A DNA stretch of 64,000 bases from an uncultured Solibacteraceae bacterium (GCA_963748795.1 CAVVLD010000118.1:3131-67130), one strand, 5' to 3'. Positions 3,768 to 62,220 are shown, numbered from the stretch's first letter. Notes: generated from the sequence alone by a model not told the origin. Made by a program: numbers and translations.

Positions 3768-5699
3768 ATGTTTGATCTGTTCCGCAGCCGTGAAAAATCG
3801 GTGCGCATACTCTTGGGGGCGCTGCTGGTACTGGTGGCGTTGTCCATGCTTACCTATCTGATTCCCAGCTATGGCACGGGAGTTTCGAACACCCCGGATA
3901 CGGTAATCGCCACGGTTGGCGGCGACTCCATCACCATGCTGGATATGCAGAAGGTGATCCAGGACACCCTAAAGGCGCGGCAGTTGCCTCCCTCCGCCGT
4001 GTCGACCTTTATTCCCCAGATGGTACAGGACGCTATTACCGAGAGGGCCCTGGCATATCAGGCCAGGCAACTCGGCCTCCAGGTGAGCGACGCGGATGTG
4101 GCGGTGACGATCCGGCAGACCATCCCGAATCTCTTCCCGGACGGCAAGTTTGTCGGCAAAGACTCCTACGCCGCCGTGCTGGCGCAGCAGAATCTGACTA
4201 TCGAGCAGTTTGAGAGCGACCTCAAACGCCAGATTCTGATCCACAGGCTGCAGGACATTGCGATAGAAGGAACGGTAGTCACGCCGCAGGAAATCGAAGC
4301 CGAGTACAAGAAGAAGAACGAGAAGATCAAGATCCAGTACGTCAAGCTGCTCTCGGACAAGTTCAAGGCGGAGGCTGCTCCCAGCGCCGACGATATCCAG
4401 AAATACTTCCAGGCCAACGCGGCGCGCTTCACCGTTCCCGAAAGGAAGAACCTGACGATCCTGCTGGCCGACCAGGCCAAGCTGATGCAGACGATCACTC
4501 CGACCGATAACGAACTGCAGGCCATGTATAACCTGAACAAGCAGCAGTTTCAGACTCCGGAGCGCGTCCAGGTGGTTCACATTCTGATCAACACGCAGGG
4601 CAAAACGCCGGCGGAAGACGCCAAGCTGAAAGCCAAGGCGGACGATCTGCTGAAGCAGGTGAGAGCAGGCGCCAACATTACGGAACTGGTCAAGAAGTAT
4701 TCGGACGATCCTGGAAAGGCGCAGAACAACGGGGAGTACTGGGTGCAGCAGGACAGCGGCATGGTGCCGGAGTTCAAGGCCGCGGCCTTCCGTCTGAAGC
4801 CGGGCGAAAGCGACGTGGTCAAAACCACGTATGGCTATCACGTCATGAAGGTGCTCAAGCATGAAGCCGCCCACCTGAAGACGTTCGAAGAGGCCAAGCC
4901 GGAGCTCACGACGCAGTGGAGGACGCAGCGGGTGTCCAACCTGTTGCAGCAGATTTCGGACAAGGCGCAGGCCGAATTACAGAAGGATCCCACGCATCCG
5001 GAAAAGGTGGCCGCGGAGTTCAATATGCAACTGGTGCAGGCCAATGCGGTCGCGCCCGATGGCACCGTTCCGGAAATCGGCGTGAATGCGGATTTCAATT
5101 CGTCCCTGGTCGGCCTGAAGCAGGGAGAAGTCTCGCAGCCGGTCGCGCTGCCTGGCAATAAGCTGGTGCTGGCGGTGGTGACCGGAATCGTTCCGGCGCG
5201 TCCCCAGACGCTGGACGAAGCCAAGGATGCCATTAAGGACACCCTTACCGGCACGCGGCTGACCCACCTGGTGCAGGAAAAGGCGACCGAACTGATGAGC
5301 AAAGCCAAGTCCATGGGCGACCTGGAAAAGGCGGCCAAGTCCATGGGGCTCGAAGTCAAGACCAGCGCCGAATTCGGACGCACCGGCACGGTGGAAGGGC
5401 TGGGCACCGCTACCTATCTGCAGGATGGTTTCCGGACGGCCGATGGCGGACTGTTCGGACCCATTGCCATTCCCGACGGCGAGGTGGTGGCCAAGGTAAT
5501 CCAGCACATTGCACCCGACATGTCGCAACTGGAGGCGCAGCGCACCCAGATTCGCGACGATCTGAAGTCGCAGAAGGCCCGCGACCGCGATTCCCTGTTC
5601 GAAGCCGGCGTGCGCGACATGCTGATCAAACAGGGCAAGCTGAAGGTGGAACAGCAGGCGTTGCAGAAGCTGATCGCCAGTTATCAGACCGGCGGATGA
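3768..5699 (+). CDS. ppiD: PpiD/SurA-type periplasmic chaperone, peptidyl-prolyl isomerase (parvulin domain)
   Basis: Intact 643 aa ORF. It has an N-terminal membrane anchor (SVRILLGALLVLVALSMLTYLI), a SurA_N-like region and a parvulin rotamase signature (HILI..., FRLKPGESDVVKTTYGYHVMKV). Confidence 0.75.
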   Translation: MFDLFRSREKSVRILLGALLVLVALSMLTYLIPSYGTGVSNTPDTVIATVGGDSITMLDMQKVIQDTLKARQLPPSAVSTFIPQMVQDAITERALAYQARQLGLQVSDADVAVTIRQTIPNLFPDGKFVGKDSYAAVLAQQNLTIEQFESDLKRQILIHRLQDIAIEGTVVTPQEIEAEYKKKNEKIKIQYVKLLSDKFKAEAAPSADDIQKYFQANAARFTVPERKNLTILLADQAKLMQTITPTDNELQAMYNLNKQQFQTPERVQVVHILINTQGKTPAEDAKLKAKADDLLKQVRAGANITELVKKYSDDPGKAQNNGEYWVQQDSGMVPEFKAAAFRLKPGESDVVKTTYGYHVMKVLKHEAAHLKTFEEAKPELTTQWRTQRVSNLLQQISDKAQAELQKDPTHPEKVAAEFNMQLVQANAVAPDGTVPEIGVNADFNSSLVGLKQGEVSQPVALPGNKLVLAVVTGIVPARPQTLDEAKDAIKDTLTGTRLTHLVQEKATELMSKAKSMGDLEKAAKSMGLEVKTSAEFGRTGTVEGLGTATYLQDGFRTADGGLFGPIAIPDGEVVAKVIQHIAPDMSQLEAQRTQIRDDLKSQKARDRDSLFEAGVRDMLIKQGKLKVEQQALQKLIASYQTGG

Positions 5700-6340
5700 T
5701 CCAACATCTTTTCGATCTTTACAGGTCTCTGACGAACCCGGACCGGCTGATCCACCTGCTGGGAACGCTGCTTTCGGGGTGGTGGGGCTACCTGGCGATG
5801 TTCGCCGTGGTGTTCTCGGAGACGGGATTGCTGGTGGGCTTCTTTCTGCCGGGCGATTCGTTTCTGTTCACCATCGGGGTGGTTGCCGGCGCGGGCGCGC
5901 TGAATATCGTCACTGTAAACATTGTGCTGATGCTGGCCGCGATGATGGGCGATTCCACCGGGTACCTGCTGGGCCGGCAGACCGGGCCGCGCATCTTCAG
6001 CCGTCCGGATTCGCGCCTGTTTAGACAGGAATACGTCACCCGCACCAAGGCATTTTACGATCGGTATGGCGGAAAGACGATCACGTTTGCCCGCTTCGTG
6101 CCCATCGTCCGGACCTTCGCGGCATTCATCGCCGGAGTGGGCCAGATGCCGTATACCCGCTTCCTGCCGTACAGCGTCTGCGGCGGCGCCGGCTGGGTAT
6201 TTCTCTGCACGATGCTGGGCTACCTGCTGGGCGGCATTCCGATCGTGAAGCAGAATTTTGACAAGGCGATCATTCTGATCATCCTGCTATCGCTTTTGCC
6301 CACGCTCATCGAAGTGCTCAAAGCGCGCCGCGAAGCGTAA
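5696..6340 (+). CDS. DedA family (SNARE-associated) membrane protein
   Basis: Intact 214 aa ORF with FSETGLLVGFFLPGDSFLF and ITFARFVPIVRTFAAFIAG motifs. ATGA overlap with the upstream gene. Confidence 0.85.
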   Translation: MIQHLFDLYRSLTNPDRLIHLLGTLLSGWWGYLAMFAVVFSETGLLVGFFLPGDSFLFTIGVVAGAGALNIVTVNIVLMLAAMMGDSTGYLLGRQTGPRIFSRPDSRLFRQEYVTRTKAFYDRYGGKTITFARFVPIVRTFAAFIAGVGQMPYTRFLPYSVCGGAGWVFLCTMLGYLLGGIPIVKQNFDKAIILIILLSLLPTLIEVLKARREA

Positions 6341-6361
6341 GACAGACCTCCCGGTCTGTCT
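6340..6361. terminator. Perfect 9-bp hairpin between convergent genes
   Basis: AGACAGACC tccc GGTCTGTCT sits directly after the DedA stop and before the stop of the minus-strand gene. There is no T-tract, so terminator function is only inferred. Confidence 0.45.
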
Positions 6362-6374
6362 AGTCATTCCCCTG

Positions 6375-6986
6375 TCATACCGACCGCCCGAACAAGCCAC
6401 TCGCGTATAGCCGCTCGTCTACCCGTCCCAGCCTGGAGACGAGCTTGGGCGCCAGCACCGGAGTATGCGAGATGGTGCACAGGTATTCCGGGATGGCCCA
6501 CACGTCCTGCTCCGCGGTCATCCAGCCTATGGAATCGAAGCGCTTCAGATTGACGGGCCGGGAGTAGCGCCGCAGGGTCTTCTCCTTCCGCAGATTGTAG
6601 TAATGCTCGAAGTAGGACATGGCCAGTTCGCGCAGCGTGCGGTACACCGGCTCGCGATAGCGCAGCCCGGAGTAGTTCGATTTCGCCAGCGCACCCCAGT
6701 GGCCGCGCAGGCGGAAGATGGCCAGCACGTGATCGTCGTCGCGCACGGCTTCGAAATCCAGCAGCAGCGGCTGGTGGCCCAACATGCGCAGCGCCGCGGC
6801 GCCGAACAGGGCTCCCTCCATGCAGTGGCCGGTGCGGTCTCGCAGGACGCGGCGCGGCGAGCGGCAGGTGGGGCCGTGCGGTTCCTTGTTGTATGCCAGG
6901 TCGTCCAGGAAACGCTGGATCTTCTCGGGCGAGCGGAGGCGGCGAAAGACCGCGCGCTCCGCGGCCGTAAACGGGTCGAAGGCCAT
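6375..6986 (-). CDS. Transglutaminase-like cysteine-protease-fold protein, function unknown
   Basis: Intact 203 aa ORF. It has a candidate Cys-His-Asp arrangement (TGHCMEGALFGAAALR ... DDDHVLAIF ...), typical of transglutaminase-like superfamily proteins. Confidence 0.55.
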   Translation of the reverse strand: MAFDPFTAAERAVFRRLRSPEKIQRFLDDLAYNKEPHGPTCRSPRRVLRDRTGHCMEGALFGAAALRMLGHQPLLLDFEAVRDDDHVLAIFRLRGHWGALAKSNYSGLRYREPVYRTLRELAMSYFEHYYNLRKEKTLRRYSRPVNLKRFDSIGWMTAEQDVWAIPEYLCTISHTPVLAPKLVSRLGRVDERLYASGLFGRSV

Positions 6987-49326: not shown

Positions 49327-49375
49327 TTTCTCCGCGCAGCCTGTTACAATCCGTTCAGGGTCCGAAATACCTTCT

Positions 49376-50961
49376 ATGCCGCGCCGTCTGGGCCGGAAGC
49401 TGATGCTTTCGATCACGGTGATTGTCATCATCGTGGCCGCAGTTTCAGGCTTGGTCAACGTCAAAACCGAGGAACAGCAACTCCTCAAAACCATGATCCT
49501 GGGGGCCGACCAGCTCTCCAAGGGAATCACCAGCGCCACCTGGCATGCCATGCTCGACGACAATCGGGAGGCCGCCTACCAGGTGATGCAGACGATTGCG
49601 CTCAAGCAGGGAATCGATCGCATCCGCATGTACAACAGCGCCGGCCAGGTGATGTTCTCCACCAATAGCGAGGACACACGCAAGGCGGCCGCCACCAAGC
49701 TGGATCTCGAATCACCCGGTACGTTCCAGCCGCGGCGCCGATGGGTACCGCCGGCTGGAGATGCTCACCCCCATATATAACGAGCGTTCCTGCAGCCAGG
49801 CGGCATGCCATGCGCATCCGGCCGACGTGAAGGTGCTGGGCGTTCTGAACCTGGCGCTGAATCTGGAAAGCGTGGATCACGAAGTCGAAAGCATGAAGTA
49901 TCGCGTGCTGCTGGTGACCGGCGTCGAAATCACCCTGATCAGCCTGTGCATCATCTTCTTCACGCGCCGGTTCCTGGGGCGGCCCATCGAAAAGCTGATC
50001 GAAGGCAGCAAAGCGATCAGCCACATGGAGCTGGACAAGCCGCTCGACCTGGCCAGCGGCAGCGAAGAACTGGACGAGCTGGCGCGCTCTTTCGAAGTGA
50101 TGCGCGGCCGCCTGCAAACCGCGCTCGGTGAGATCAACCAGTTCACACAGAACCTGGAAAGCAAGGTGGCCGAGCGCACGCAGCAGCTCCAGGCCGCGCA
50201 GAAGAAGCTACTGCACAGCGACCGCCTGGCGTCCCTGGGACAGCTTTCGGCCAGCGTGGCGCACGAGATCAACAATCCCGTCTCCGGCGTGCTCAACCTT
50301 TCCATGCTGTTGCAGCGCATGTTGAAGGACGACGGCATTCCGCCGAATCGCATCGAAGAGTTTCGCAAATACCTGTCGCAGGTGGTGAATGAGACCGCCC
50401 GGGTGGGCCGCATTGTTTCGGACCTGCTGGCCTTTTCGCGACGCTCCAAGCCGCAGCGCACGCCGGCCGACCTGAACAAGATCGTCAAGATGACGCTCTC
50501 GCTGGTGCAGCACAAGATGAAGCTCAGCAATGTGACGGTAGAGCAGAATCTTCGCGAAGACCTGCCCGCGGCCGCCTGCGATGCCTCGCAGGTGCAGCAG
50601 GTGGTGTTGAATCTGCTTCTGAACGCCGCCGAGGCCACGCAGAGCAAAGCCGACCGCCGCGTGACGGTTTCGACCGAAGCCGGCCCTGGCGAGGTGCGGC
50701 TGCTGGTGACTGACAACGGCGAGGGCATCCAGCCGGAAAACCTCACCAAGATTTTCGACCCGTTTTTTACCACCAAGGCCGAAGGCAAGGGAGTGGGGCT
50801 CGGGCTGGCCGTCTCCTACGGAATCATCCAGGCGCACGGCGGCGATATTGAAGTGAAGAGCGAGGTCGGCGAAGGCGCCACCTTCATCGTCTCGCTGCCC
50901 CTGGAGCGGCACGCACCGGCGGAGGCGGCGCTGCCCGTGGAGCCGGCTGCGCAAGGGATGA
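49376..50961 (+). CDS. Membrane sensor histidine kinase (periplasmic sensor, HAMP, HisKA, HATPase), frameshifts near 49700-49760 and probably near the 3-prime end
   Basis: TM LMLSITVIVIIVAAVSGLV, second TM plus HAMP (VLLVTGVEITLISLCIIFFTRRFLGRPIEKL), H-box SASVAHEINNPV, N-box LLLNAAEA, G1 DNGEGI and G2 GKGVGLGLAVS. A TGA at 50959..50961 overlapping the next ATG is in another frame. Confidence 0.8.
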
Positions 50962-51500
50962 AGTACTTCTACCTCGGCGCGACTCCCGAGGTGGAGCGGC
51001 CGCCGTTCGAAGCAGTGCGCCGGCGCATGGCGGCGGAATATCGGCGAGCCGGTGAGGGAGATTGCACTTCCCGGCGTGGAGTTCGCGTTCGACACGGGCC
51101 GGCAGCAGTACCGGTCGATGGATGTGCTGGAGATGCTGGCCCGGATTTGTCCCGGCCGACGCCGCGAAGTTGCTGGCGCTCACCGGGCGGGATCTGTTCG
51201 TCCCGGTGCTGACCTTCGTCTTCGGGCAGGCGCAGTTGGGCGGCCGCGTGGCCGTGGTTTCGCTGGCGCGCCTGCGGCAGGAGTTTTACGGCATGGCGCC
51301 CAACGGCGAGATTCTTATGGAACGCGCCGTCAAGGAAGCGCTGCACGAAACCGGCCATACGTTCGGGCTGGTGCATTGTCGCGGACCGGAGTTGCGCCAT
51401 GTCTCTGGCCACCAACGTCCGGCAGATCGATGAAAAGAACGGAGCCTGGTGCGCGTCGTGCGCGGCGCAGTTACGGCGGGCAAAGGGAGTAATTCGATGA
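50958..51500 (+). CDS. Archaemetzincin-type zinc metalloprotease (peptidase M54), at least 3 frame changes
   Basis: MKYFYLGATPEVE..., IALPGVEFAFDTGRQQY, LLALTGRDLFVPVLTFVFGQAQLGGRVAVVS, HETGHTFGLVHC, then CAMS ... WCASC. This matches the HExxHxxGxxHC ... CxM ... CxxC pattern of the family. The stop TGA 51498..51500 overlaps the next ATG. Confidence 0.75.
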
Positions 51501-52857
51501 AGACCCACTGGCAGATTCTGGTGGTGGACGACGAAGAGGTGATGTGCGAATCGCTCGCCGCGTGGCTGCGCGAGGACGGCTACCACGTGGATACCGCCGC
51601 GTCCGGCCGGGAGGCGCTGGAAAAGGCCGCGGCAGCGGGATTACGCCATCTACTTCGTGGATCTCAAGATGCCGGGCGGCATGGACGGCATCGAGACCAT
51701 GATGCAGGTGCGGCGCCTGCATCCCGAAGCCTCCATCATCATCATCACGGCCTACGCCACCGTGGATACGGCCATCACGGCGATGAAGGAAGGCGCGCAG
51801 GAGTACATCGTCAAGCCGTGCAATCCGGAGGAGATTTCGCTGCTGGTCAGCCGCATCATCAAGGTGAAGAACCTGCAGCGCGAGAACACCATCCTGCGCA
51901 AGAAGCTGAGCCGGCAGTATTGCGTGCAGGACGTGATCAGCAAGAATCCCAAAATGCAGGAGATTCTGGCTCTGGCGCACCAGGTTTCGAGCCTGCGCAG
52001 CACGGTGCTGATTCAGGGCGAGAGCGGCACCGGCAAGGAGATGGTGGCGCGGGCGATTCACTTTTCGGGCGACCGCGCGTCGAAGCCGTTCGTGGCCGTC
52101 TCCTGCGCGGCGCTGGCCGAGACGCTGCTGGAGAGCGAACTGTTCGGCCACGAGAAGGGCTCCTTCACCGGAGCGGCGCAGCAGAAGCAGGGCAAGTTCG
52201 AGATGGCCGACGGAGGCACCATCTTCCTGGACGAGATCGGCGACATTTCTCCCAAGCTGCAGGTGGACCTGCTGCGCGTGCTGCAGGACCGCAGCTTCTA
52301 CCGCGTGGGCGGGATCGGAGGAGGTCAAGGTGGATGTGCGGGTGATCGCCGCCACCCACGTCAATCTGCAGCAGGCGGTGGCCGACGGCGACTTTCGCGA
52401 CGATCTGTTCTACCGGCTGAACGTGATCGAAATCCGCATTCCGCCGCTGCGCGACCGGCGCGAGGACATTCCGCTGCTGGCGGCGCATTTCGTGGAAAAG
52501 CTTTCGCACGAATTAGGGCGCGATGCCGGCGAGATCTCCGAAGGCGCCCTCAAAGTGCTGATGGACCACGACTGGCCGGGCAACGTGCGGGAACTGGAGA
52601 ATGCCGTGGAGCGCGCCATGGTGACCTGCCGCTCCCACGTCCTGACGGAAGAGGATTTCTCGTTCCTCACCGAGGTGCGGGAATCCGCCAAACCGATGGC
52701 GATTCCCCCGGGCATGACCATGCAGGAGATGGAACGGCTGCTGATCGTCGAGACGCTGCGCCGCGCGGGAGGAAATATCAAAGAGTCCGCCGCCACCCTG
52801 GGAATCGACCGCTCGACGCTTTACGAGAAGATCAAGAAGTACGAGATTCCAAGGTAG
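51497..52857 (+). CDS. Sigma-54-dependent response regulator (NtrC/AtoC family), two frameshifts
   Basis: Receiver ([14 protein letters not shown] ... [13 protein letters not shown] ... KPC), AAA+ core ([40 protein letters not shown] ... [11 protein letters not shown]) and a Fis-type HTH ([18 protein letters not shown]). Confidence 0.85.
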
Positions 52858-52950: not shown

Positions 52951-53018
52951 ACCGGGTGGCGGAGAGGATCATCTACCGCGGGGATTCGCACGCGGGGCGT
53001 TCAGAGTAAAATGTAGTC

Positions 53019-53234
53019 ATGCGCAACGAGTTCACGGCAATCGTCGAGCAGGATGGGCCTTGGTTTGTAGCGTACTGCGCCGAATTGCCAGGCGCGAATG
53101 GACAAGGCAGGACTGAAGAAGAGTGCCTCGCGAACTTGCGCGAGGCAATTGCGCTCATCCTGGAACATAGGCGTGAGGAATCTCTGCGGGCCTTACCCCC
53201 TGACGCGAGGCAGGAACCCGTAGTTGTTGGATGA
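53019..53234 (+). CDS. hicB: HicB-family antitoxin
   Basis: Intact 71 aa ORF: FTAIVEQDGPWFVAYCAELPGANGQGRTEEECLANLREAIALILE (UPF0150/HicB pattern). 4-nt overlap with the hicA start. Confidence 0.75.
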   Translation: MRNEFTAIVEQDGPWFVAYCAELPGANGQGRTEEECLANLREAIALILEHRREESLRALPPDARQEPVVVG

Positions 53235-53422
53235 GGCGCGAAGGGCTTCTCCGGCACCTTCGCCGCCACGGTTGTGTGCTGCGCCGAGAGGGCAAAGAAC
53301 ACACTCTTTGGGAAAATCCACAAACCGGCCACGCTGAAGCAGTGCCTCGCCATTCCGAGATCGCAAACCTCTTGGCACGAAGAATCTGCCGGAAACTGTC
53401 AATCCCAGATCCGCCAGGCTAA
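53231..53422 (+). CDS. hicA: HicA-family mRNA interferase toxin
   Basis: Intact 63 aa ORF: LLRHLRRHGCVLRREGKEHTLWENPQTGHAEAVPRHSEIANLLARRICRKLSIP, the YcfA/HicA pattern. Confidence 0.8.
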   Translation: MRREGLLRHLRRHGCVLRREGKEHTLWENPQTGHAEAVPRHSEIANLLARRICRKLSIPDPPG

Positions 53423-53865
53423 CTAGCAGCGAAATAGACTCCACACCGATTGACCGGCCACGCGTTCCACCTGGTTCCGGCCTACTTCTTCTTCCAGTAT
53501 GAGTAGACGCCATCCATGTTGATGCGTAGATGCCGAAGGCACTCCCCCACCACCCGCTCTTGATGCAGCGTGAGTGCCTTGATCAGGCGCCGGAAATGAA
53601 CTCGCTTTGCGATAACGCCGAAACCTGCTCCACTTCAAGATCGGCCCATTGCCGGCCGCGAAGCTGTCGAAACTCCCCCTCCGCTTCGTCAACATTAGTC
53701 CGGCCTACCCGGAATCACCTCGTCCCCGGGGATAAACTGTGCCGGCGAAAGCCGACTTCAGCTTTTCTATCATAGGGTCCCCCTTGATTTCGGAGATTCT
53801 CATGCGGCGTTGACTGGGATCTGTTCGTGCTTTACGTGGTGTAGTTGCACGAGGCGGGGCTGCAC
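53423..53865 (-). pseudogene. Degraded toxin-antitoxin remnant(s), possibly VapBC-like
   Basis: Minus-strand frames give fragments only. MIEKLKSAFAGTV..PGDEVIPG resembles an AbrB-type VapB tail. DTNVDEAEGEFRQLRGRQWADLEVEQVSALSQSEFISGA is weakly similar to a PIN N-terminus. No single frame is open across the region. Confidence 0.25.
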
Positions 53866-54002
53866 CTCGCTATCTTCAAAGTGAAGGAAAGTGGCTTCCA
53901 GAACATTGGCCCGAAGGTCGTCCCAGGTGTCAGCTTGGGTGAAAATGGCGTGGCCCAGGGCTCGTTCCAATTCCATGCCCTTAGGAGACTACCCCTCCAG
54001 GA
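53866..54002 (-). repeat. Repeat B copy 1 (HicB-like antitoxin fragment plus the last codons of the GcvH-like gene), paired with 55628..55733
   Basis: ctcgctatcttcaaagtgaaggaaagtggcttccagaacattggcccgaaggtcgtcccaggtg.cagcttgggtgaa.atggcgtggccc is shared with 55628..55719. After a 33-bp insertion, tacccctccagga is also shared. On the minus strand it encodes MELERALGHAIFTQADTWDDLRANVLEATFLHFEDSE. Confidence 0.85.
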
Positions 54003-54395
54003 GCGCACTTCGTGGAAAACTCTCTCACGATTTAGTTAGGACGCGATGCCGGCGAGATTTCCGAAGGCGCCCTCAGAGTGCTGATGGCCCACGATTGGCC
54101 AGGCATCGTGCGGGAACTGGAGAATGCCGCGGAGCGCGCCATCCGATGGCGATTCCCCCGGGAATGACCAAGCAGGAGATGGAACGGCTGCTGATCGTCG
54201 AAACGCTGCGCCGCGCGGGAGGGAATATCAAAGAGTCCGCCGCCACCCTGGGCATCGATCGCTCGACGCTCTACGAAAAGATCAAGAAGTACGATTCCAA
54301 GGTAGGGCGGGGGGAGCGCCTGCAATACGCACCGATTGCCGAGTCGACAATCCGACCGGGGGCGGACACATAATTTCGCGGTTAGGGGGCGTGAT
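54003..54395 (+). pseudogene. Truncated, internally deleted copy of the sigma54 regulator 3-prime end (repeat A copy 2)
   Basis: Encodes ...GNVRELENA-like and [50 protein letters not shown] in broken frames. It lacks about 75 bp ([25 protein letters not shown]) and everything upstream of codon ~330. Confidence 0.8.
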
Positions 54396-54497
54396 GCGGT
54401 CGAGTGATACACGAGCTACATTACCGTAGAGGTCACAACCCAACAAATCCCTTCGGCGTAACAGCGGATCAGCAGGGCAGATAGCTTTACGACCAGG

Positions 54498-54659
54498 GTG
54501 GATTCTGTAATCGCCAACTTCGATCCGAGTCGGCAGTATATGTATCGGCCTGAGGGTTCGGTTTTCGGATACGTTAGTGGTGTTGGAAAGAAGTACCTGT
54601 ATGCTCCATCAAGAGAGAACATTGGGTACTTCAAACCAGGATTCCTAGAGCTTGTCTGA
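54498..54659 (+). CDS. Possible small ORF (53 aa from GTG), beta-hairpin-repeat-like
   Basis: VDSVIANFDPSRQYMYRPEGSVFGYVSGVGKKYLYAPSRENIGYFKPGFLELV reads more protein-like than the overlapping minus-strand ORF 54416..54673. No Shine-Dalgarno sequence seen. Low confidence. Confidence 0.2.
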   Translation: MDSVIANFDPSRQYMYRPEGSVFGYVSGVGKKYLYAPSRENIGYFKPGFLELV

Positions 54660-54733
54660 AGATCCGGCTCCATTTTTCGGGATCACTTGGGGCCAATTTG
54701 GGCGAAACCCGCGGCGACTCCAGAATCCGTATA

Positions 54734-54901
54734 TCAAGCGCTCAGTTTTTGAGGTTTGCGGACCAAAGACACAACTTTGTGTCCAGACCGGCGTTGCCGC
54801 TTTTTTGCGGCCGATAGGATGGCTTTGACGTCAAAACGGTGCTTGGCGGCCTCAGCCTCACGGGCGCGCCGGACTTCATCTACGATGGGATCCCTGGACA
54901 T
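54734..54901 (-). CDS. Small basic protein, candidate partner (antitoxin-like) of the PIN protein
   Basis: MSRDPIVDEVRRAREAEAAKHRFDVKAILSAAKKRQRRSGHKVVSLVRKPQKLSA. The ATG complement at 54901 is 4 nt after the PIN stop. Not in the ORF track because it is under 60 aa. Confidence 0.45.
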   Translation of the reverse strand: MSRDPIVDEVRRAREAEAAKHRFDVKAILSAAKKRQRRSGHKVVSLVRKPQKLSA

Positions 54902-54905
54902 GGAT

Positions 54906-55379
54906 CTATTCTCCTAATAATCCTTCCGGCGTACAGACGACGGGACATTCGCACCCGTGCTCCCGGCAAATGGAAGCAAGCGACTTGAGGATCACCGCAT
55001 TGGCGATGTGCACGCAATTCCAGGTTATCAGGAAGTCCATGCCGTGCACAGCCGCAATCGCGATATGCGCTGCGTCGGTGGCAGCCTTGCGCGGGATCGT
55101 TCCGGAGATCAGAATTCCGGACGCCAATTCCGCAACCCCGGGCGTAATATCCAACATCGGGAGGGGTTGTAGGATCTTCAGCCGCTCGCGGGCTGCTGCG
55201 GGGTCTCCGGCGCTCACTTCGTCGAGGACAAACTGCGAGATATAGATTTGGAAATCGCCCCGACGTCTGTCCCACCACTCTCGTGTCAACTGCTGATGGC
55301 CGGCAATGATCAAGTCCCGGCTTGGCCGCGAGGTCAGATAGCTGGGAATAGTCGTTTCCAGATACAGGCGAGGCTTCAT
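54906..55379 (-). CDS. PIN-domain protein (VapC-like toxin family)
   Basis: Intact 157 aa ORF: MKPRLYLETTIPSYL ... IYISQFVLDEV ... ATDAAHIAIAAVHGMDFLITWNCVHIAN, giving acidic residues at PIN-like spacing. Confidence 0.65.
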   Translation of the reverse strand: MKPRLYLETTIPSYLTSRPSRDLIIAGHQQLTREWWDRRRGDFQIYISQFVLDEVSAGDPAAARERLKILQPLPMLDITPGVAELASGILISGTIPRKAATDAAHIAIAAVHGMDFLITWNCVHIANAVILKSLASICREHGCECPVVCTPEGLLGE

Positions 55380-55627
55380 TCCCCGATATTAGCCCGTCTC
55401 AATTTCAAGCAGGAAGCATTTCTTCGAAGCGCTTCCACTGGCCGTATAGTTCTATCTCGTCGAAGTGCCGGCTCCGAACAGATAACGCCGCGCCCGGAGA
55501 AAGGTCACCTCTGCCCGTCTCGAGCATAGGAACATGTCCCTCGGCGGCAGCTATCTGAACAGCTTTCCGTAATAGACTCCACACTGATTGACCGGGTTTG
55601 CTGCGACCCAACACTCGTATGCCGTAT

Positions 55628-55733
55628 CTCGCTATCTTCAAAGTGAAGGAAAGTGGCTTCCAGAACATTGGCCCGAAGGTCGTCCCAGGTGGCAGCTTGG
55701 GTGAATATGGCGTGGCCCGCTACCCCTCCAGGA
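55628..55733 (-). repeat. Repeat B copy 2 (HicB-like fragment directly downstream of, and including, the stop of the GcvH-like gene)
   Basis: See 53866..54002. On the minus strand it encodes ...GHAIFTQAATWDDLRANVLEATFLHFEDSE without a start codon. Confidence 0.85.
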
Positions 55734-56549
55734 ACATCTCGCCGCAGACCGCGTCCCAATCTGCCTTGGGATAAGCCTGGGACATATCCGCGATGGGGAC
55801 TCCGCCGTCGGCCAATGCCGGGGCCGCGCCTTCGGCGGTAAGAGTGAGTTGCAGCCGTTCCAGTTCCCGCATGAGCCACGGGCGCACTTCGGCGCCGCGC
55901 AGCAGATGACGAAACGCGGGTTCGCCGGAGGCGGCGGGCCGCACTTTCAGGTACCAGCCCGCGCCGGGAGCGCCCGCTTCGATCACCTCGCCATCCACGG
56001 GGGAAAGCACGCGCACATCCGCGCCATGCTTGTGGACGCGGAATGCCGTGCCGTTCACCTCTATCCGCGAACCCAGCCGGCGGCAGCGCGACCTGGTCGG
56101 GAGTTCCCAATAGCCGCGAGCCCAATTCGTCCAGCCCGACCGTCACCGTGCCGTCGCTCTCCGGGCGCACCCAGGTGTGCCCGCGATGGTAGAGGCGATC
56201 CAGCGGGAACGACATGCCGAAGATCTCCTCTTCTTCGCCCGCGGCCACCGGGTGGCTCTCCACCAGGCGTGGCGTGCGTTTCGCACTCCCGGCAGTCGAA
56301 GGAATGCGGGCACTCGCGGCTTTCGAACTCGCCGGTGAGCACGTGGCGGCAGACGCGGTCGCCGGCGGGCAGGTCGTGAAATTCCGAGTGCCAGCGGATG
56401 CGCTCCACCTTGCGCGAGCTCAGATCCCGGCGCGAGCGCAGGGCGGCATTCACCAGCGTCGTGACCATAATCACCAGCACGGTGTAGAAGGCTCCCAGAA
56501 ACACAATGTGTCCGGCGTCCAGATGAAATCCATAATTCCAAGGCAACAT
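55720..56549 (-). CDS. Membrane-anchored GcvH-fold (barrel-sandwich) protein with a 4-Cys motif, two frameshifts
   Basis: TM HIVFLGAFYTVLVIMVTTLVNAAL; Cys motif DRVCRHVLTGEFESRECPHSFDCRECETH (ORF 56061..56549); then YHRGHTWVRPESDGTVTVGLDELGSRLLG (ORF 55505..56263); then NGTAFRVHKHGADVRVLSPVDGEVIEAGAPGAGWYLKV (ORF 55720..56058). This is the GcvH-like H.W...G...VG.. / SP..GEV / GW pattern. Confidence 0.6.
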
Positions 56550-56594
56550 GTGAGTATCTCCTGCAACGCTCCCTGACAGGGGCTGTTCCGAATT

Positions 56595-57849
56595 TCAGTT
56601 CCCGCTCCGAGGGAAAAAGCTGGAAGTAGCGGAACGAGAACGAATAGACCAGAACTCCGTACGCCACCACCGCCAGGAACGTGCCGGTCTCCTGCCAGCT
56701 TGGCAAGTAGGATAGGAACCGGTCGAAGGAGAGCGTGGGCAGCGCCAGCGTCTGCACCGTCATTACGAATCGATTCAGCGCCACGCCGGTGCAGGCCATA
56801 GCCGCGGCGGCGACCAGCCATCCGGTGCGCGCGCGCAACTGCGGAGCCAGCAGGATCAATGCCGGAACCAGTCCGAACAGCACGATTTCGGCGAACAGGA
56901 TCCAGGTGCCGAACGGCTGCCACGAGTAGTATTGCGCCGCCGGGAATCCGGTCTCGGGCGAGGTGCGATTGATCCAGATCAGCGTGTCGATGGTCTTGGC
57001 CAGCACGTAGACGGACAGCAGCAGTCCGGAGATGCGGCCCAGCAGGCCGAACACTTCCGGCCGCACCAGTTTCTTGCGGCTGATCTTCTCCACCAGCCAG
57101 GTGGTCAGCAGAATGAAGCTGGGGCCCACCGCCGCCGCCGAAATGATGAACAGGAAGAACGTGGACGGCCAGACCGCAAAGCCTTCGCGAAACGCGAACG
57201 GCCGGCCGCGCAGCACGCCGTACAGGCCGCCGAGCGAGCCCTGGTGGAAGAACGAAAGGAACGTGCCCACGCCCGCCAGCACATAGATCAGCTTGTGCAG
57301 TTCGAATTCGAACACCAGGAACGACGGCACCTGGCGCAGCTTCCGGTTCTTCAGCACGATGGGCAGATACTCGATGGCCAGCACGGTGAGGTAGCAGCTG
57401 ATGCAGAAGGTGACTTCGGTCAGCATGGAGTGCACGTTGGGATACCAGAAGGTGAACCAGGCGCGCAGCGGCTGGCCCACGTCCACCGCCAGCACGCAGA
57501 CCGCGCCGCTGTAGCAGACCAGCCCGATGACCACGGCGCTGTTGATGACCGCCCGCAGTTCCTTCAGCTTCAGAATGTAGAGCAGGAATCCGGTGAAGAA
57601 CGCGCCCGCTCCCAGCGCGATCACGGTGAGGTCGAGGAAGATCCACAGGCCGAAGGCGAAGCGGTTGTCCATGTTGGTCTGGTTCAGGCCTTTCACCAGG
57701 CAGAGACCCGCCGAATAGAGGCCGAACACCAGCAGGGCGGCCCAGGGCAGGATCCACAGCAGGAACTTGGCGGTGGAGCAGCGCTTCACGCCGCGCGCGA
57801 TGAATTGCTTATCCACTTGCTTATCCACGGTGATTCTCCTTTCCGGCAT
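56595..57849 (-). CDS. NrfD/PsrC-family integral membrane quinone-interacting subunit (3-prime end frameshifted)
   Basis: Within ORF 56143..58494: FLLWILPWAALLVFGLYSAGLCLVKGLNQTNMDNRFAFGLWIFLDLTVIALGAGAFF plus at least 8 further TM segments. Start ATG 57849, or GTG 57828 preceded by GGAAAGGAGA. The in-frame read-through into the next gene is implausible; a TGA at 56595..56597 becomes available after a T/C run. Confidence 0.75.
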
Positions 57850-58576
57850 CGTGCTGCCCGGCGGCGGGATGCGGCGCATCGGCGGCCTCGCGCACCCAGT
57901 CGCGTTTCGACCGGTAGTAGATCTTGGGCTCGGTACCGAGCTTCTCGAGCAGGCGGAAACTGCCGCCGCTGCCGCGCCGCCTGTGCAGGGGCGCTGGCGG
58001 GGTCGTTGAGATCGCCGAACTGAATGGCGCCGGTGGGGCAGGCTTCGGCGCAGGCGGGCAGATAGTCGCACCGGCTCGGTGTCCGGCTTGCCTGCGGCCG
58101 CGGCCTGCTGCTTGGCGGCGTGCCAGCGGCCGTGACAGAAGTTGCACTTCTCCACCACGCCGCGCATCCGCGGCGTCACGTCGGGATTGAGCGTCTTCTC
58201 CATGCCTGCGGGCCACGCCGGATCCCACCAGTTGAAGTAGCGCGCGTGATACGGGCAGGCGGCCATGCAGTAGCGGCATCCCAGGCAGCGCTGCGGCATC
58301 TCGCCGACGATGCCGGTGGCCGGGTCCACATCCACCGCCTGCTGCGGGCAGACGTGCGCGCAGGGCGTTTCATTGCCGCACTGCTGGCACATCACCGGAA
58401 CGAACGCCGACGCGGGTTTCCGGATACGGCAGGCCGTTATCGATCTTGTAGACGCGGATCCAGGTGAGCCCGTTGCGATCGGTCGCGCCCGCATGGGCCG
58501 GCGGCACGTTGTTCTCCACGGCGCACGCCACCATGCAGGCGCCGCAACCGGTGCAGCGATCCACGTCGATGGTCAT
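57821..58576 (-). CDS. 4Fe-4S ferredoxin-type subunit (PsrB/QrcC/ActB2-like), two frameshifts
   Basis: CTGCGACMVAC (ORF 58370..58576), CQQCGNETPCAHVCP, CLGCRYCMAACP and CNFCHG (ORF 56143..58494 frame), and YLPACAEACPTGAIQFGDLNDP (alternate frame near 58030), with the tail in ORF 57821..58279. Confidence 0.8.
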
Positions 58577-58615
58577 TCCGTAGCGTGCAGCCCGGATGTG
58601 TTTGTTTGGTCGCAG

Positions 58616-60429
58616 TCATACGCGCACCACCTTTGCCCGCGGCGAGGAGCCGCACAAATCCAGCGTGCGCGGCCCGGCCGCCAACTGCACCACGCCCTGC
58701 GGAGCGCCCGCGTCCACCGAGACCCACACGTCGAGCCGGCCGCAACCGGTCTCCAGGATGGCCCGGCCTCCGTCCTCAACGCGGCATTCGCTCGCCACCG
58801 CGGGATGAAGCACCACGCGGTCCGCGGCGCAGCCGCAGGTTGGATTCCTGGTACAGCTTGGAGAGGATCGGCGAACCCGGCGCCGGCCGGCGCTTCGGCC
58901 ATCACCACAGCCAGCGGAAAACTGTCCGCTACCGGCTCCGCGACGGGCGGCCCAAGGGCCAGCTTGGGGATCTCCGTGTGCTCCGGCAGCGCGTCCATCC
59001 AGCAGGCGCCTTCATGGAGCGCCTTCCAGAAGTCGTCCGCCTTGACGTCCTTCACGGCGGTCGATTTCGCGTCGGCATACGTGAATACAGTGCCACGACC
59101 GGCTTTGTGGATGGCGTCGGCGCGTTCCCGCAGAGCGTTCGTTGCGGAAATCTGTGCCAGGCCGGCGATGAACTCCGCCGGATTCACCACGTCGGCCGGC
59201 GGCGGCAGCAAGGCGGCCGAAAGCCGGAACATGGCGGCCGGCGAATCGACCGCGGGCGGGATATCGTCCACCCACTCCGGATACACCGCGGCGGGCAGAA
59301 CGAATTGCGCGTGCCGCCCATAGCCTTCGCCCGACCATGCGAACGCGACCACCACCGGATTGTCCGCGACCAGTTTCTTTTCGATGGCGCTCCACGGCAG
59401 GTAGCGGGCCCGGCGCCGATTCGTCGATCAGCAGAACGCGCACCGAACCGTCCGGCACCGCGTGCCAGTTCCGTCGCGGCCACGGCCTTGTTCCACTCGC
59501 CCGGAACCGGCGCTTCGCGGCGCGTCACGATGGTGTGTCCCAGGGCGCCCACCAATTGATTCAGCGCCAGAATCTCGGGCGCGGTCCCGGGCATCCAACA
59601 CCAACGACGGGCCGTTCTCCGCCAACTCTCGTGCCACCGCGACAATCTGCGCCTCGGTGAGGCCGGTTTCCAGTGCCGCGTCATGCAGAGGCTGGTTCCC
59701 CAGCACGTTCGCGATGGCGCGCGCCAGTGCCGTTTCCGATCCCGGCCGGATGGGCAGCCACTGGTCGGCCATCACGGCCGTTCGCGATTCCACCGTCTCG
59801 GCTTGAATCAGGCGGAAGCCTTCGCGCGCGGCGATCACGTTACCCGGGGTGCCCCAGCCGTCCAGCAGGGGAGCCCCAAAGCTGAGGACCGTCTTAGCCG
59901 CGGCCAGGTTCACCGCCAGGTTCCCGCCCAACGCGTGCGGCGGCGTCAGGTATGTGCCATTCTTCCATTGCGCCAGCGAGCGGCGGTAGGTCCAGGAAGC
60001 TGTGCGGCCGGGGCGCAGATCCAACACGGCGATTCGTTCGCCGCCGGCGCAGTGCGCCAGGGCATCCGAAATCGCCGCGGCTGCCTGTTCGACGGGCCCC
60101 TGCCTGATCCGCGCGGGATGGTACGGAAGATGATGTCCCGCCAGGCCAAACGGGCACAGCGCGCCGTGGGTGAACGGGTGCTCCGGAACTCCCATCAGCG
60201 CCACGGGCTGCTCGCCCACACAGCGGGCGCGCACCGCGCACCCCGCCGGACACAGCGAGCAATTGGTGTACCTGGCGCGAATTTCGCCGCGCGCCGGGCG
60301 CGGCACGCCGGGCCAGGTTTCCGACCAGAGCGCGGTATCCGTGACCAGCCGCCACGGGGCCGGCGTAAACAGGGCGCCCACTGCCGCGCCGCCGGCGAAC
60401 TTGAAAAGATCTCTTCGAGTGGATGTCAT
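58616..60429 (-). CDS. Tat-exported molybdopterin-oxidoreductase-family (MopB) subunit, compact (~600 aa), about 4 frame changes
   Basis: Twin-arginine signal MTSTRRDLFKFAGGAAVGA. N-terminal Cys cluster NCSLCPAGCAV ... GALCPFG. The C-terminal beta-barrel-like VLHPAVASECRVEDGGRAILETGCGRLDVWVSVDAGAPQGVVQL is in ORF 58616..58816. Pieces lie in ORFs 59428..60429, 59184..59684, 59012..59458 and 58573..59355. Confidence 0.75.
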
Positions 60430-60439
60430 GGTGGGCCTC

Positions 60440-61012
60440 CTATTTGTGGCAGTCCAGGCAACTGTTTTCCAGCCCCTGCTGCCGGTGGCATTCCACGCAG
60501 GCGCTCATGGTCATGGCGGCGCGCGTGGTCTTGACGCGTTCGGCCGTTTGCCAGATGTTGCGGGAGTAGCCGCTCACGCGGTCCTGCTGGTACGGCAGCA
60601 GATGGTCGGACGCGCCGTGATCGCCATGGCAGGTTTCGCACGAAAGTTTCGCCCGCTTCACGTGCGCGATGTGGCTGAAGAAGACGTTTTCCGGCTGCCG
60701 CGCATAGACCGCCCATTGCGGTTCGCGCGCGGGCGTGACGTACTGCTCGACAAAGTTCTTTTCCGCGGCCGTGGTGCCCATCGCCGCGGCATGACAGCCC
60801 GCGCATTTGTCCAGAGTAGGGATGCCGGCGAACGTCCCATCGGGACGAAACGCGTGACAATCCTCGCATTTCTGGCCGGCCTTATCGGCGTGGACCTTGT
60901 GACTGAAATCCACCGGCTGAAGCCGGGTCTTGTAAATGGCGCGGGGAAACCCCGCCCACCCTGCCACCAGCATGATTGCCGCGCCGGCCGCAAATGGGAA
61001 AATTCCGCGCAT
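60440..61012 (-). CDS. Membrane-anchored pentahaem c-type cytochrome (ActA/cytochrome c3 family-like)
   Basis: Intact 190 aa ORF with the N-terminal TM IFPFAAGAAIMLVAGWAGF and five CxxCH motifs (CEDCH, CAGCH, CETCH, CVECH, CLDCH). AGGAGG precedes the next gene 10 nt downstream. Confidence 0.85.
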   Translation of the reverse strand: MRGIFPFAAGAAIMLVAGWAGFPRAIYKTRLQPVDFSHKVHADKAGQKCEDCHAFRPDGTFAGIPTLDKCAGCHAAAMGTTAAEKNFVEQYVTPAREPQWAVYARQPENVFFSHIAHVKRAKLSCETCHGDHGASDHLLPYQQDRVSGYSRNIWQTAERVKTTRAAMTMSACVECHRQQGLENSCLDCHK

Positions 61013-61900
61013 TCAGACTCTCTTTCCGCTCGCGTAAGGCGAGAAAAATTCATGAAACAGCACGCGCAGCCGGTCGCCATCCAGATGATGCGCCAGGCCG
61101 GCTGCAAACAGGCCGCCATCGGCCATGGTGCCCGATTGAGCGGCCTGCTCCTGCTGGAGAAACTCGTTCATGCGCCGCTGTTCCTGTTCCATCCAATGGC
61201 GCGCCGCAGGGCCTTCCATCAGGTTCTCCGCGGTCTGGGGCAGAGGCCGGCCTTCGAACAGCCACCCCGCGGTGTAAGGTTCGCTGGTGATGCGCGAGGG
61301 GTTGGCCCGCAGGTACAGGTTGCAGCCGGTCAGCAGGATGGGATTGGGAAACATGACTTCCAGGTCCACGCCGTTTACGGTGAGCACCGCGGCGGGCCGG
61401 GTGCGCCCATTCAATTGCACGAAGGTGAGCCGGTCGACCGGCCCCAGCACGCGGCTGAGAAACGCATCGATACCCACGTGGCACATGCCGTCTTCGCCCA
61501 TGTCCAGCCACATGTGATTGGCGGTGTAGCGCAGCCGCTCCGGCATGGCGAGCCCTTCCACTTCCTCCGAAGGAGTGCCGGGGTGGGCCATGGAAAGGTA
61601 CAGTTCGCAGTAGCGGAAACTATCGTTGCCGCAACGCGAGAGCAGCGATTCGCTGTAGGGCACCAGTTTCGCCACCGGCGCCGCCGCGCAATACTGCATC
61701 AGCGATTCCCGCAGGAACGGGCACGGCCCCCGGTCCGCCGATTCTTCGAGCGGCTGCGTTTGAAACACCTTGCAGGTGCCATATTCCCCGGACGAGCATT
61801 TCTCTTCCGTCCGTCCGGCCTGCGCCAGGGGAATCAGCTTCCGGACAGCAGCCGTCCGGCAATACTTGACCTGAGCTTCTCTGAGGAAGGGGCAGGTCAT
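61013..61900 (-). CDS. Soluble GcvH-fold protein with two N-terminal 4-Cys modules (CPFLRE...YC...C...C)
   Basis: Intact from MTCPFLREAQVKYC (ATG complement at 61900, inside ORF 61013..62218). The GcvH-like core is YTANHMWLDMGEDGMCHVGIDAFLSRVLGPVDRLTF ... LTVNGVDLEVMFPNPILLTGCNLYL..NP..I...PYTAGWLFEG. No lysine occupies the position of the lipoyl-lysine (ESVKA). Confidence 0.65.
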   Translation of the reverse strand: MTCPFLREAQVKYCRTAAVRKLIPLAQAGRTEEKCSSGEYGTCKVFQTQPLEESADRGPCPFLRESLMQYCAAAPVAKLVPYSESLLSRCGNDSFRYCELYLSMAHPGTPSEEVEGLAMPERLRYTANHMWLDMGEDGMCHVGIDAFLSRVLGPVDRLTFVQLNGRTRPAAVLTVNGVDLEVMFPNPILLTGCNLYLRANPSRITSEPYTAGWLFEGRPLPQTAENLMEGPAARHWMEQEQRRMNEFLQQEQAAQSGTMADGGLFAAGLAHHLDGDRLRVLFHEFFSPYASGKRV

Positions 61901-61905
61901 ACGGG

Positions 61906-62220
61906 CTACCGCTCCTCTTCTTTGTCGAGCTTCTCGCCGCCATCCGCCATGGTGAGGCCAAGCCCGGGAGTGTGAAACGCGTGCCCATCCTGGAAGGACG
62001 ACACCAGGTCTGCGACCTCGCGGTCCAACTGCGACAACGCGGCCCGCTTCTTTCGCCTCGCAGCGACTTCCTGGAGGACGCCGATGCCCACCGCAATGCA
62101 GCAGATCAGCACCACTATGCCTAACGCGGCATTGGTGAGAGTCAGCCAATAAGTCGAAGGATCGTTCACGGAAACTTCTCCTTTCCCTGGAGGAAGGTGC
62201 AAGGCGGGGGCCATGCACAT
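61906..62220 (-). CDS. Small single-TM membrane protein with charged C-terminus (first gene of the redox operon)
   Basis: ORF 61906..62220: TM WLTLTNAALGIVVLICCIAVGIGVL followed by ARRKKRAALSQLDREVADL...KLDKEEER. The true start may be internal. The stop is 5 nt before the next ATG. Confidence 0.35.
   Translation of the reverse strand: MCMAPALHLPPGKGEVSVNDPSTYWLTLTNAALGIVVLICCIAVGIGVLQEVAARRKKRAALSQLDREVADLVSSFQDGHAFHTPGLGLTMADGGEKLDKEEER

Follow-up and report, generated by a model that had tools for sequence, protein, structure and literature searches.

A Qrc gene cluster flanked by conserved, lipoyl-less GcvH-fold proteins in Acidobacteriota, Bacteroidota and Eisenbacteria

Analysis of a 64,000-nucleotide stretch of DNA from an uncultured Solibacteraceae bacterium (GCA_963748795.1, CAVVLD010000118.1:3131-67130; the whole stretch is referred to below as the window) revealed seven consecutive, tightly packed genes on the minus strand at 55720-62220. 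In transcription sense these encode a small transmembrane (TM) protein, a GcvH-like protein (GcvH-A), QrcA, QrcB, QrcC, QrcD and a second GcvH-like protein (GcvH-B). The gene map was built against intact orthologues (locus L003, tblastn) and against a near-identical contig, JARLGM010000001.1 (locus L085), of the metagenome-assembled genome (MAG) CO124 (GCA_031292755.1, Ca. Sulfopaludibacter), which is 91% identical to the window and collinear with it over 7.7 kb. All seven genes are intact in CO124, an Illumina MAG that represents the sulfate-reducing acidobacterium which Dyksma and Pester described in 2023 (PMC10564751). An earlier interpretation of the window, made from the nucleotide sequence alone (the sequence-only reading), had described a seven-gene minus-strand operon with this inventory and these domain calls, all of which are borne out by motifs, Pfam and NCBIfam, but its operon extended to an ATG at 62220, whereas the orthologues and the CO124 annotation agree on a GTG at 62169. 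In most of the 86-138 orthologous loci the genes overlap or are separated by less than ~30 nt, and gcvhB starts before qrcD has ended in 109 of 138 loci. A sigma-54-type -24/-12 element (TGGCCCCCGCCTTGCA; 62198..62213, minus strand) is located 44 nt before the GTG with which the small gene starts.

The central four genes are, as far as their sequences go, qrcABCD proper with a divergent, short qrcB, because QrcA and QrcD pass the equivalog cut-offs and QrcB and QrcC match Qrc best. QrcA (60440..61012), predicted to be a pentaheme cytochrome c with five CxxCH motifs and an N-terminal hydrophobic anchor or signal, scores 210.5 bits in the window and 213.2 bits in L003 against NCBIfam NF041781 (cut-off 180). 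QrcD (56561..57830; stop codon lost in the window), the putative quinone-reactive membrane subunit, is assigned to the NrfD family by both Pfam and NCBIfam and matches NF041784 over its full length with 582.3 bits in the window and 587.7 bits in L003 (cut-off 570). QrcC (57821..58619; four single-base insertions in the window) is a four-cluster ferredoxin subunit with 16 cysteines in four groups and no twin-arginine translocation (Tat) signal; its best NCBIfam match is QrcC, for which an intact orthologue reaches 361 bits, below the cut-off of 400, and the next is DsrO with 165 bits. QrcB (58616..60429; several frameshifts in the window) is a MopB-like protein predicted to be exported by the Tat pathway, with a TRRDLFK Tat motif and a Cx2Cx3Cx27C motif. 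In NCBIfam it matches QrcB best, with 143 bits (cut-off 440) and over residues 1-115 only, and a Pfam search did not match the main molybdopterin oxidoreductase domain. The length of QrcB varies strongly within this clade: the protein of a Candidatus Eisenbacteria MAG (L166:11601-13895) has 764 residues and weak Molydop_binding matches, as against 530-600 residues in Acidobacteriota. The PDB contains no Qrc chain. The sequence-only reading had termed the core Qrc/alternative complex III (ACIII)-like; the Qrc half of that description is upheld by the NCBIfam equivalogs and the gene order, while the comparison with ACIII adds little.

The Qrc complex of Desulfovibrio (Nitratidesulfovibrio) vulgaris and other Desulfobacterota shares with these genes the order qrcA-B-C-D, a multiheme QrcA, a Tat-targeted MopB-like QrcB, a four-cluster QrcC and an NrfD-type QrcD. 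It differs in its QrcA, for which six hemes are listed in D. vulgaris (PMC8076601) as opposed to five here, and in its QrcB, which is represented by a 695-position model that the ~530-600-residue proteins of this clade match only at the N terminus. In Desulfovibrio, qrc belongs to a predicted Rex regulon (PMC4045070), whereas a sigma-54 element and a dedicated two-component system are found here. Qrc has been defined by four subunits without dedicated partners; at the loci described here, three further operon genes flank qrcABCD and are conserved across three phyla. The complex has been described from Desulfobacterota, whereas the present loci belong to Acidobacteriota, Bacteroidota and Eisenbacteria. 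Calisto and Pereira found QrcD only in Deltaproteobacteria and reported that NrfD-type subunits, including QrcD, contain no redox cofactor (PMC8076601). The Desulfovibrio enzyme is purified as four subunits and a deletion was rescued with qrcABCD alone in a 2026 study (PMC13059093), and electrogenic cytochrome c3:menaquinone oxidoreductase activity is known only for this enzyme (PMC6303296, PMC13059093). The one exception that we found to this Desulfobacterota-centered literature is the CO124 paper, which assigns qrcABCD in the acidobacterium and reports their transcription under anoxic, sulfate-reducing conditions (PMC10564751).

ACIII resembles the cluster in its pentaheme ActA-like cytochrome, its MopB-like and four-cluster modules, its NrfD-type subunit and its small single-TM supernumerary subunits (in part from PMC8076601). 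In ACIII, however, the MopB-like and Fe-S modules are fused in ActB rather than encoded by separate genes, there are two NrfD-type subunits (ActC and ActF) instead of one, and there are no GcvH-like partners. The NrfD-type subunit of the present cluster scores as QrcD and not as ActC. ActD and ActE are missing from the conserved unit, just as the sequence-only reading had stated, and the neighborhoods of the locus set showed no further Act-type heme or TM subunits in it.

GcvH-A (295 aa; 61013..61900), which is intact in the window, consists of two four-cysteine modules and a GcvH domain, after which an (A/S)DGG motif lies between two helices, the second of them C-terminal. Its N-terminal 105 residues form two tandem modules of the pattern CPFL.E..V..C-x18-20-C-x7-C, and their eight cysteines do not vary among 67 relatives with 32-67% identity to the protein of the window. 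This double module found no match in Pfam (67 members, E ≤ 5), in NCBIfam or in a PDB profile search (E ≤ 1). The following domain is detected by Pfam GCV_H (26.6, cut-off 22.2), and the family profile matches E. coli GcvH structures across the whole domain (E 8e-9, PDB profile search). The column that corresponds to the lipoyl-lysine of E. coli GcvH, K64, holds G or N.

GcvH-B (275 aa; 55720..56549; two frameshifts in the window) has a single TM helix at its N terminus and then a C-R-H-x-C-x5-C-x2-C-x2-H module, which is invariant. The GcvH domain that comes next is lipoyl-less and is followed by two helices, the second C-terminal, with an LADGG motif between them. Against Pfam GCV_H, orthologues with intact frames reach 36.6 bits, and the family profile matches E. 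coli GcvH with an E-value of 4.5e-12. An AlphaFold model has a predicted local distance difference test (pLDDT) score of 86-92 over the GcvH domain and aligns with E. coli GcvH in Foldseek (E 2e-9, target-normalized TM-score 0.77, root-mean-square deviation 2.4 Å). The K64 column is occupied by D, G, E or N, and a lysine two residues upstream is not conserved. Pfam and the profile matches, and for GcvH-B also Foldseek, thus agree on the GcvH fold that had been proposed for both flanking proteins. Loss of the lipoyl-lysine, which the sequence-only reading had noted for the soluble copy, is evident there but is not restricted to it. NCBIfam GcvH scores of 34.9 and 28.8 bits lie far below the cut-offs of 117 and 116. 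GcvH-A and GcvH-B are paralogues (hhalign probability 97.3%, E 2.4e-11), with an alignment that spans the last cysteine, the GcvH domain, the helix and the invariant (A/S)DGG motif.

The third accessory protein (87 aa; 61906..62169) is a predicted single-pass membrane protein, N-out and C-in, that belongs to no Pfam or NCBIfam family. It has a conserved TM segment, WLN.TN..LG, and a tail of the pattern H-x-F..P.LG.TMADGGE that is at least 80% conserved over 81 loci. A (T)(M/L)ADGG motif is thereby common to all three accessory proteins (~61930-61950, ~61110-61125 and ~55795-55810 in the small gene, gcvhA and gcvhB, respectively). Its likeness to the FE.ADGGT segment that precedes Walker B of sigma-54 activators, including the one encoded nearby, was set aside as probably coincidental, that segment being a generic motif of bacterial enhancer-binding proteins. 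One Ignavibacteriales MAG (L034:16727-17455) encodes an extra GcvH-B paralogue directly after gcvhB, which lacks the TM helix but retains the CRH..C..C..C module, a YHRGHTW segment and a variant SDGG motif. An apparent QrcD-GcvH-B fusion at the same locus was rejected, as the read-through resolves into two separate open reading frames plus this extra soluble paralogue.

No signal peptide is assigned to any of the three accessory proteins in the CO124 supplement (NO_SP). GcvH-A has no hydrophobic segment (maximum 19-residue Kyte-Doolittle value 1.38) and its first cysteine motif starts at residue 3, while the single helix of the small protein and that of GcvH-B are flanked by net charges of -1 on the N-terminal side and +4 on the C-terminal side. 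The absence of signal peptides, the N-out/C-in flank charges and the lack of a TM segment in GcvH-A therefore predict that the cysteine and GcvH domains face the cytoplasm, with QrcA, QrcB and QrcC on the periplasmic side. In 61 diverse GcvH-B sequences the TM region equals the GcvH domain in conservation (mean column identity 0.60 versus 0.61), which argues for specific packing of this helix. The four-cysteine modules of GcvH-A and GcvH-B are probably metal-binding.

Both proteins share the barrel-sandwich fold of GcvH and LbpA. They differ from these lipoyl carriers in the replaced lysine and in the gain of the N-terminal four-cysteine modules and of a C-terminal helix-ADGG-helix, to which GcvH-B adds its TM anchor. 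Neither gcvT, gcvP nor sHdr/Hdr-like genes recur in the conserved neighborhood. Barrel-sandwich domains without a swinging arm serve structurally in NqrA and RnfC, which are cytoplasmic peripheral subunits of membrane complexes linked to quinone or ferredoxin. The comparison is one of functional analogy and not of membership: Foldseek gave a weak match to V. cholerae NqrA (4u9o; E 0.12, 60 columns), there is no significant sequence or whole-fold match, and neither Nqr nor Rnf is related to the NrfD family.

A motif scan with GcvH-A alignment A4 over one genome per GTDB species yielded up to 547 candidate loci, the best 80 of which were analyzed. These 80 come from Bryobacterales, Terriglobales (including Sulfotelmatobacter), Thermoanaerobaculia, Holophagales, Ignavibacteria, Kryptoniota and other Bacteroidota, and nearly every one with enough flank keeps the seven-gene order, at GcvH-A identities down to 38%. 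The order is also kept in the Candidatus Eisenbacteria MAG and in 16 of 16 metagenome loci with enough flank; the metagenome scan, which used GcvH-B as query, returned close relatives only and so confirms synteny without adding breadth. Recurrence of the layout in Acidobacteriota, which the sequence-only reading had suggested looking for by neighborhood mining, is accordingly clear and extends to Bacteroidota and Eisenbacteria. The 80 loci were also screened for other recurrent neighbors, such as hydrogenase, formate dehydrogenase, cytochrome c3 and dsr genes, and apart from lineage-local synteny none emerged. A search of 1.84 billion representative sequences with the GcvH-A profile found at least 202 clusters (50% identity) at E ≤ 1e-30 with the GcvH-A architecture. 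All matches that carry a name are uncultured MAGs. Correlations between the distance matrices of the seven proteins are 0.74-0.95, which would fit joint inheritance of the unit; the partial correlations (0.33 for GcvH-B with QrcD and 0.35 for QrcC with QrcD) are too weak to assign partners.

In 46 of the 80 loci the 200 nt that precede the small gene contain a TGG-N9-TGC element, as against ~0.095 expected per stretch, and no sigma-70-like site was found in the window between 55000 and 62600. In 46 loci the cluster adjoins an operon for a sensor kinase, an M54-family peptidase and a response regulator. Relative to the qrc operon it is transcribed convergently in Acidobacteriota and divergently in several Bacteroidota, and it occupies ~49.4-52.9 kb on the plus strand of the window and L085:11838-15312 in CO124. 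In the window the first gene (approximately 49376..50966) encodes a sensor histidine kinase with a periplasmic sensor that carries a Cx4CH motif and a weak match to the Mcp40H-20 sensor, followed by HAMP, HisKA and HATPase domains. An archaemetzincin-like Peptidase_M54 (approximately 50963..51502) lies between it and a sigma-54-dependent response regulator (REC, AAA+, HTH_8; approximately 51499..52857), which is frameshifted in the window and is 66-87% identical across phyla. It is unusual for a two-component operon to contain a metalloprotease gene.

The metatranscriptome of CO124 gave 0 reads per kilobase per million (RPKM) for every gene of the unit in four oxic samples (PMC10564751). In the four anoxic samples qrcA-D ranged overall from 0 to 1.7 RPKM; qrcD reached 0.99, 0.86, 0.17 and 1.16 (adjusted P 0.018), qrcA 0.87, 1.70, 0.93 and 0.64 (not significant, adjusted P 0.14), gcvhA 1.12, 1.96, 1.19 and 1.02 (adjusted P 0.003) and the small gene 0, 2.96, 1.61 and 2.07 (PMC10564751). 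At least five or six of the seven genes are therefore co-expressed anoxically at low levels, the first six alike. Expression of the cluster is probably activated by the adjacent kinase-archaemetzincin-sigma-54 regulator operon when conditions are reducing or anoxic.

We read the locus as a sigma-54-dependent operon for a Qrc-type complex, to which its family would assign periplasmic cytochrome c:menaquinone oxidoreductase activity. QrcA with its five hemes, Tat-exported QrcB and four-cluster QrcC lie on the periplasmic side, and cofactor-less QrcD would reduce menaquinone; with electrons from a periplasmic donor and protons from the cytoplasm, the reaction would be electrogenic by analogy with the Desulfovibrio enzyme. 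The three accessory proteins would form a membrane-tethered cytoplasmic module at QrcD, in which GcvH-B is anchored directly and GcvH-A is held via the small protein. The small protein resembles a detached anchor of a GcvH-B-type protein, so that together with GcvH-A it would amount to a split GcvH-B. Such a module could stabilize or regulate the complex, for example by adjusting proton entry or activity to the cytoplasmic redox or metal state, and would carry no electrons, lipoate or sulfur into the periplasmic chain. A sigma-54-regulated Qrc whose accessory proteins act as tethered metal-binding partners or regulators at the cytoplasmic face of QrcD is the interpretation that we favor, with moderate confidence.

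Several observations weigh against it. The extras are not needed for Qrc chemistry, because the Desulfovibrio complex works as four subunits (PMC13059093), and gcvhB had zero reads in all eight CO124 samples (PMC10564751). The structural models are of limited help: the AlphaFold2 model of GcvH-A from a 43-sequence alignment is poor (pLDDT 46.7), leaves the cysteine domain unmodelled and was not used for the fold assignment, and the cysteine region is likewise unmodelled in GcvH-B. Moreover, the small protein and GcvH-A are encoded on their own at L050:9670-10933 and L053:9670-10933, and at L058:9690-10966 and L065 (~5343-6574) they abut the regulator-M54-kinase operon; at these four loci, from four species, the pair has a sigma-54 element of its own and no qrc gene or gcvhB lies within 10 kb. 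The pair is therefore separable from Qrc, unlike GcvH-B. The arrangement at L058 and L065 looks as if the qrc-gcvhB segment had been excised.

The accessory proteins could instead be biogenesis factors, which would retain QrcB and QrcC while Fe-S clusters are inserted and Tat proofreading takes place, or aid assembly onto QrcD, and then leave. The cytoplasm is the site of Tat-substrate maturation, QrcB has a Tat signal and QrcC has none, the conserved unit includes no gene for a TorD/NarJ-type chaperone, the cysteine-rich modules could bind Fe-S clusters, and a Qrc that functions as four subunits in Desulfovibrio (PMC13059093) would fit partners of this kind. Two of the three proteins are, however, membrane-anchored through TM helices that are conserved in sequence, two paralogues with a shared peptide motif exceed what a chaperone requires, and the small protein and GcvH-A persist at loci without qrc. 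The Tat proofreading chaperones known to us are, in addition, soluble, and on balance we regard a role in biogenesis as unlikely. A further proposal is that the accessory proteins, or at least the small protein and GcvH-A, are a tethered redox or metal sensor or a feedback regulator of the kinase-M54-sigma-54 circuit, similar to PspBC/PspA-PspF, with TMADGG as a candidate docking or cleavage site of the M54 protease. The cluster has the kinase-M54-regulator operon as its neighbor in 46 loci, and at L058 and L065 the small protein and GcvH-A are encoded next to that operon without qrc, with the sigma-54 element retained (TGGCACGGGGGTTGC in L058). A protease gene is co-conserved with three proteins that have one short invariant motif, and the small gene and gcvhA come first in the regulated operon, as in feedback designs. 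Yet the pair at L050 and L053 has no two-component system nearby, the Eisenbacteria locus has all seven genes with no such system within 10 kb, and gcvhB always follows qrcD with overlapping codons, so that signaling seems to us rather a doubtful function. It is also quite improbable, in our view, that the trio as a whole is a hitherto unrecognized cytoplasmic signaling or carrier module, based on lipoyl-less GcvH domains with new Cys4 metal sites, in which archaemetzincin processes or docks at TMADGG and which would link the state of menaquinone or Qrc to sigma-54 transcription or to a cytoplasmic redox or sulfur reaction; if true, this would be a new wiring of an NrfD-type complex to the cytoplasm without a heme b subunit.

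The sequence-only reading had placed the GcvH-fold proteins in a periplasm- or membrane-facing relay, in which they would pass electrons or sulfur to the quinone-coupled complex or receive them from it. Both proteins do have a GcvH fold, GcvH-A has eight invariant cysteines and GcvH-B four, and the shared motif terminates in Gly-Gly, as sulfur-carrier proteins do at their C termini, a likeness that we take as a lead only. Organisms with the cluster include dsr-bearing Acidobacteriota (PMC10564751). The lipoyl-lysine is nevertheless absent from both proteins, their predicted location is cytoplasmic while the redox centers of Qrc are periplasmic, and QrcD has no cofactor for transmembrane electron passage (PMC8076601). 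Because the accessory domains would be cytoplasmic, the NrfD-type subunit is cofactor-less and the conserved unit has no heme b or HdrD-like subunit, direct delivery of electrons or sulfur to the Qrc chain is unlikely, and the proposed relay conflicts with the topology, with QrcD and with the missing lysine. The cluster is also found in Ignavibacteria, Kryptonia and Eisenbacteria, which to our knowledge are not typical sulfate reducers. A carrier function of this kind is improbable and ranks lowest among the functional explanations.

Whether the window operon encodes anything functional at all depends on its frameshifts, which could be real marks of a decaying pseudogene cluster. Relative to CO124 the window has 25 indel events, mostly single C or G insertions. 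Some 14 of them break frames across qrcB, qrcC, gcvhB and the qrcD stop, with at least eight events in qrcB, four in qrcC, two in gcvhB and a 2-nt insertion near 56564 that abolishes the qrcD stop codon; the distribution is uneven, with none in the small gene, gcvhA, qrcA or murI. In the corrected frame, however, the ratio of nonsynonymous to synonymous substitution rates (dN/dS) relative to CO124 is 0.06-0.18 across all seven genes (0.08 for the small protein and 0.16 for GcvH-A), and the broken genes, at 0.10-0.18, fall in the same range as the intact ones; the accessory proteins, like the core, are under purifying selection. The frameshifts are thus most likely assembly errors, given the low ratios and the similarity of broken and intact genes. 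Eleven further gaps in 3.5 kb of the nearby, unrelated kinase and regulator genes, the similar fragmentation of a long-read MAG (L005) and the intact state of the near-identical Illumina MAG also speak against decay, which we consider very improbable. The advice of the sequence-only reading to polish the assembly was apt, considering that qrcB, qrcC, gcvhB and the qrcD stop are all disrupted relative to CO124.

No paper was found on GcvH-like partners of Qrc, on extra Qrc subunits or on Qrc in Ignavibacteria. The supplement of the CO124 paper labels the flanking genes "Glycine cleavage H-protein" and "hypothetical" without comment (PMC10564751). The suggestion that the system was undescribed consequently stands for the partners and falls for the core, as qrcABCD had already been reported and found to be anoxically transcribed in CO124. 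The locus is a known Qrc system with an undescribed add-on and not a categorically new system. Its occurrence in soil, peat and sediment members of Acidobacteriota, Bacteroidota and Eisenbacteria shifts where periplasmic cytochrome-to-menaquinone coupling may be expected, and the presence of dsr-bearing peatland Acidobacteriota among the carriers makes the unit relevant to cryptic sulfur cycling. It also flags an abundant uncharacterized family that is now mis-annotated as glycine cleavage H proteins, and the role of a lipoyl-less, cysteine-rich GcvH domain at the cytoplasmic face of an NrfD-type complex becomes directly testable.

The region of the window between the qrc operon and the response regulator (53000-55720) holds toxin-antitoxin-like genes that are absent from CO124 or single-copy there. 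A HicB/HicA-like pair lies at 53019-53422, a HicB-like gene is present twice (53800-53976 and, degraded, at ~55505-55718), and a PIN-domain gene (54906-55379) has a small open reading frame upstream of it (54734-54901). The 3' end of the response-regulator gene is also duplicated in this region, over 145 nt (54150-54294). The frame-breaking differences from CO124 are almost all +1 C or G insertions in GC-rich, non-homopolymer context; they cluster in qrcB, qrcC, gcvhB, the kinase and the regulator (55720-60429 and 49333-52850), and the interior of qrcD, like the small gene, gcvhA, qrcA and murI, is free of them. This pattern looks like a systematic mode of assembly error and not random decay. 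At the start of qrcD (57798-57830) the window reads VDKQVDKQ, encoded by a direct 12-nt repeat of GTGGATAAGCAA (two copies), where CO124 has a single VDRQ; the repeat is either a small tandem duplication or another assembly artifact.

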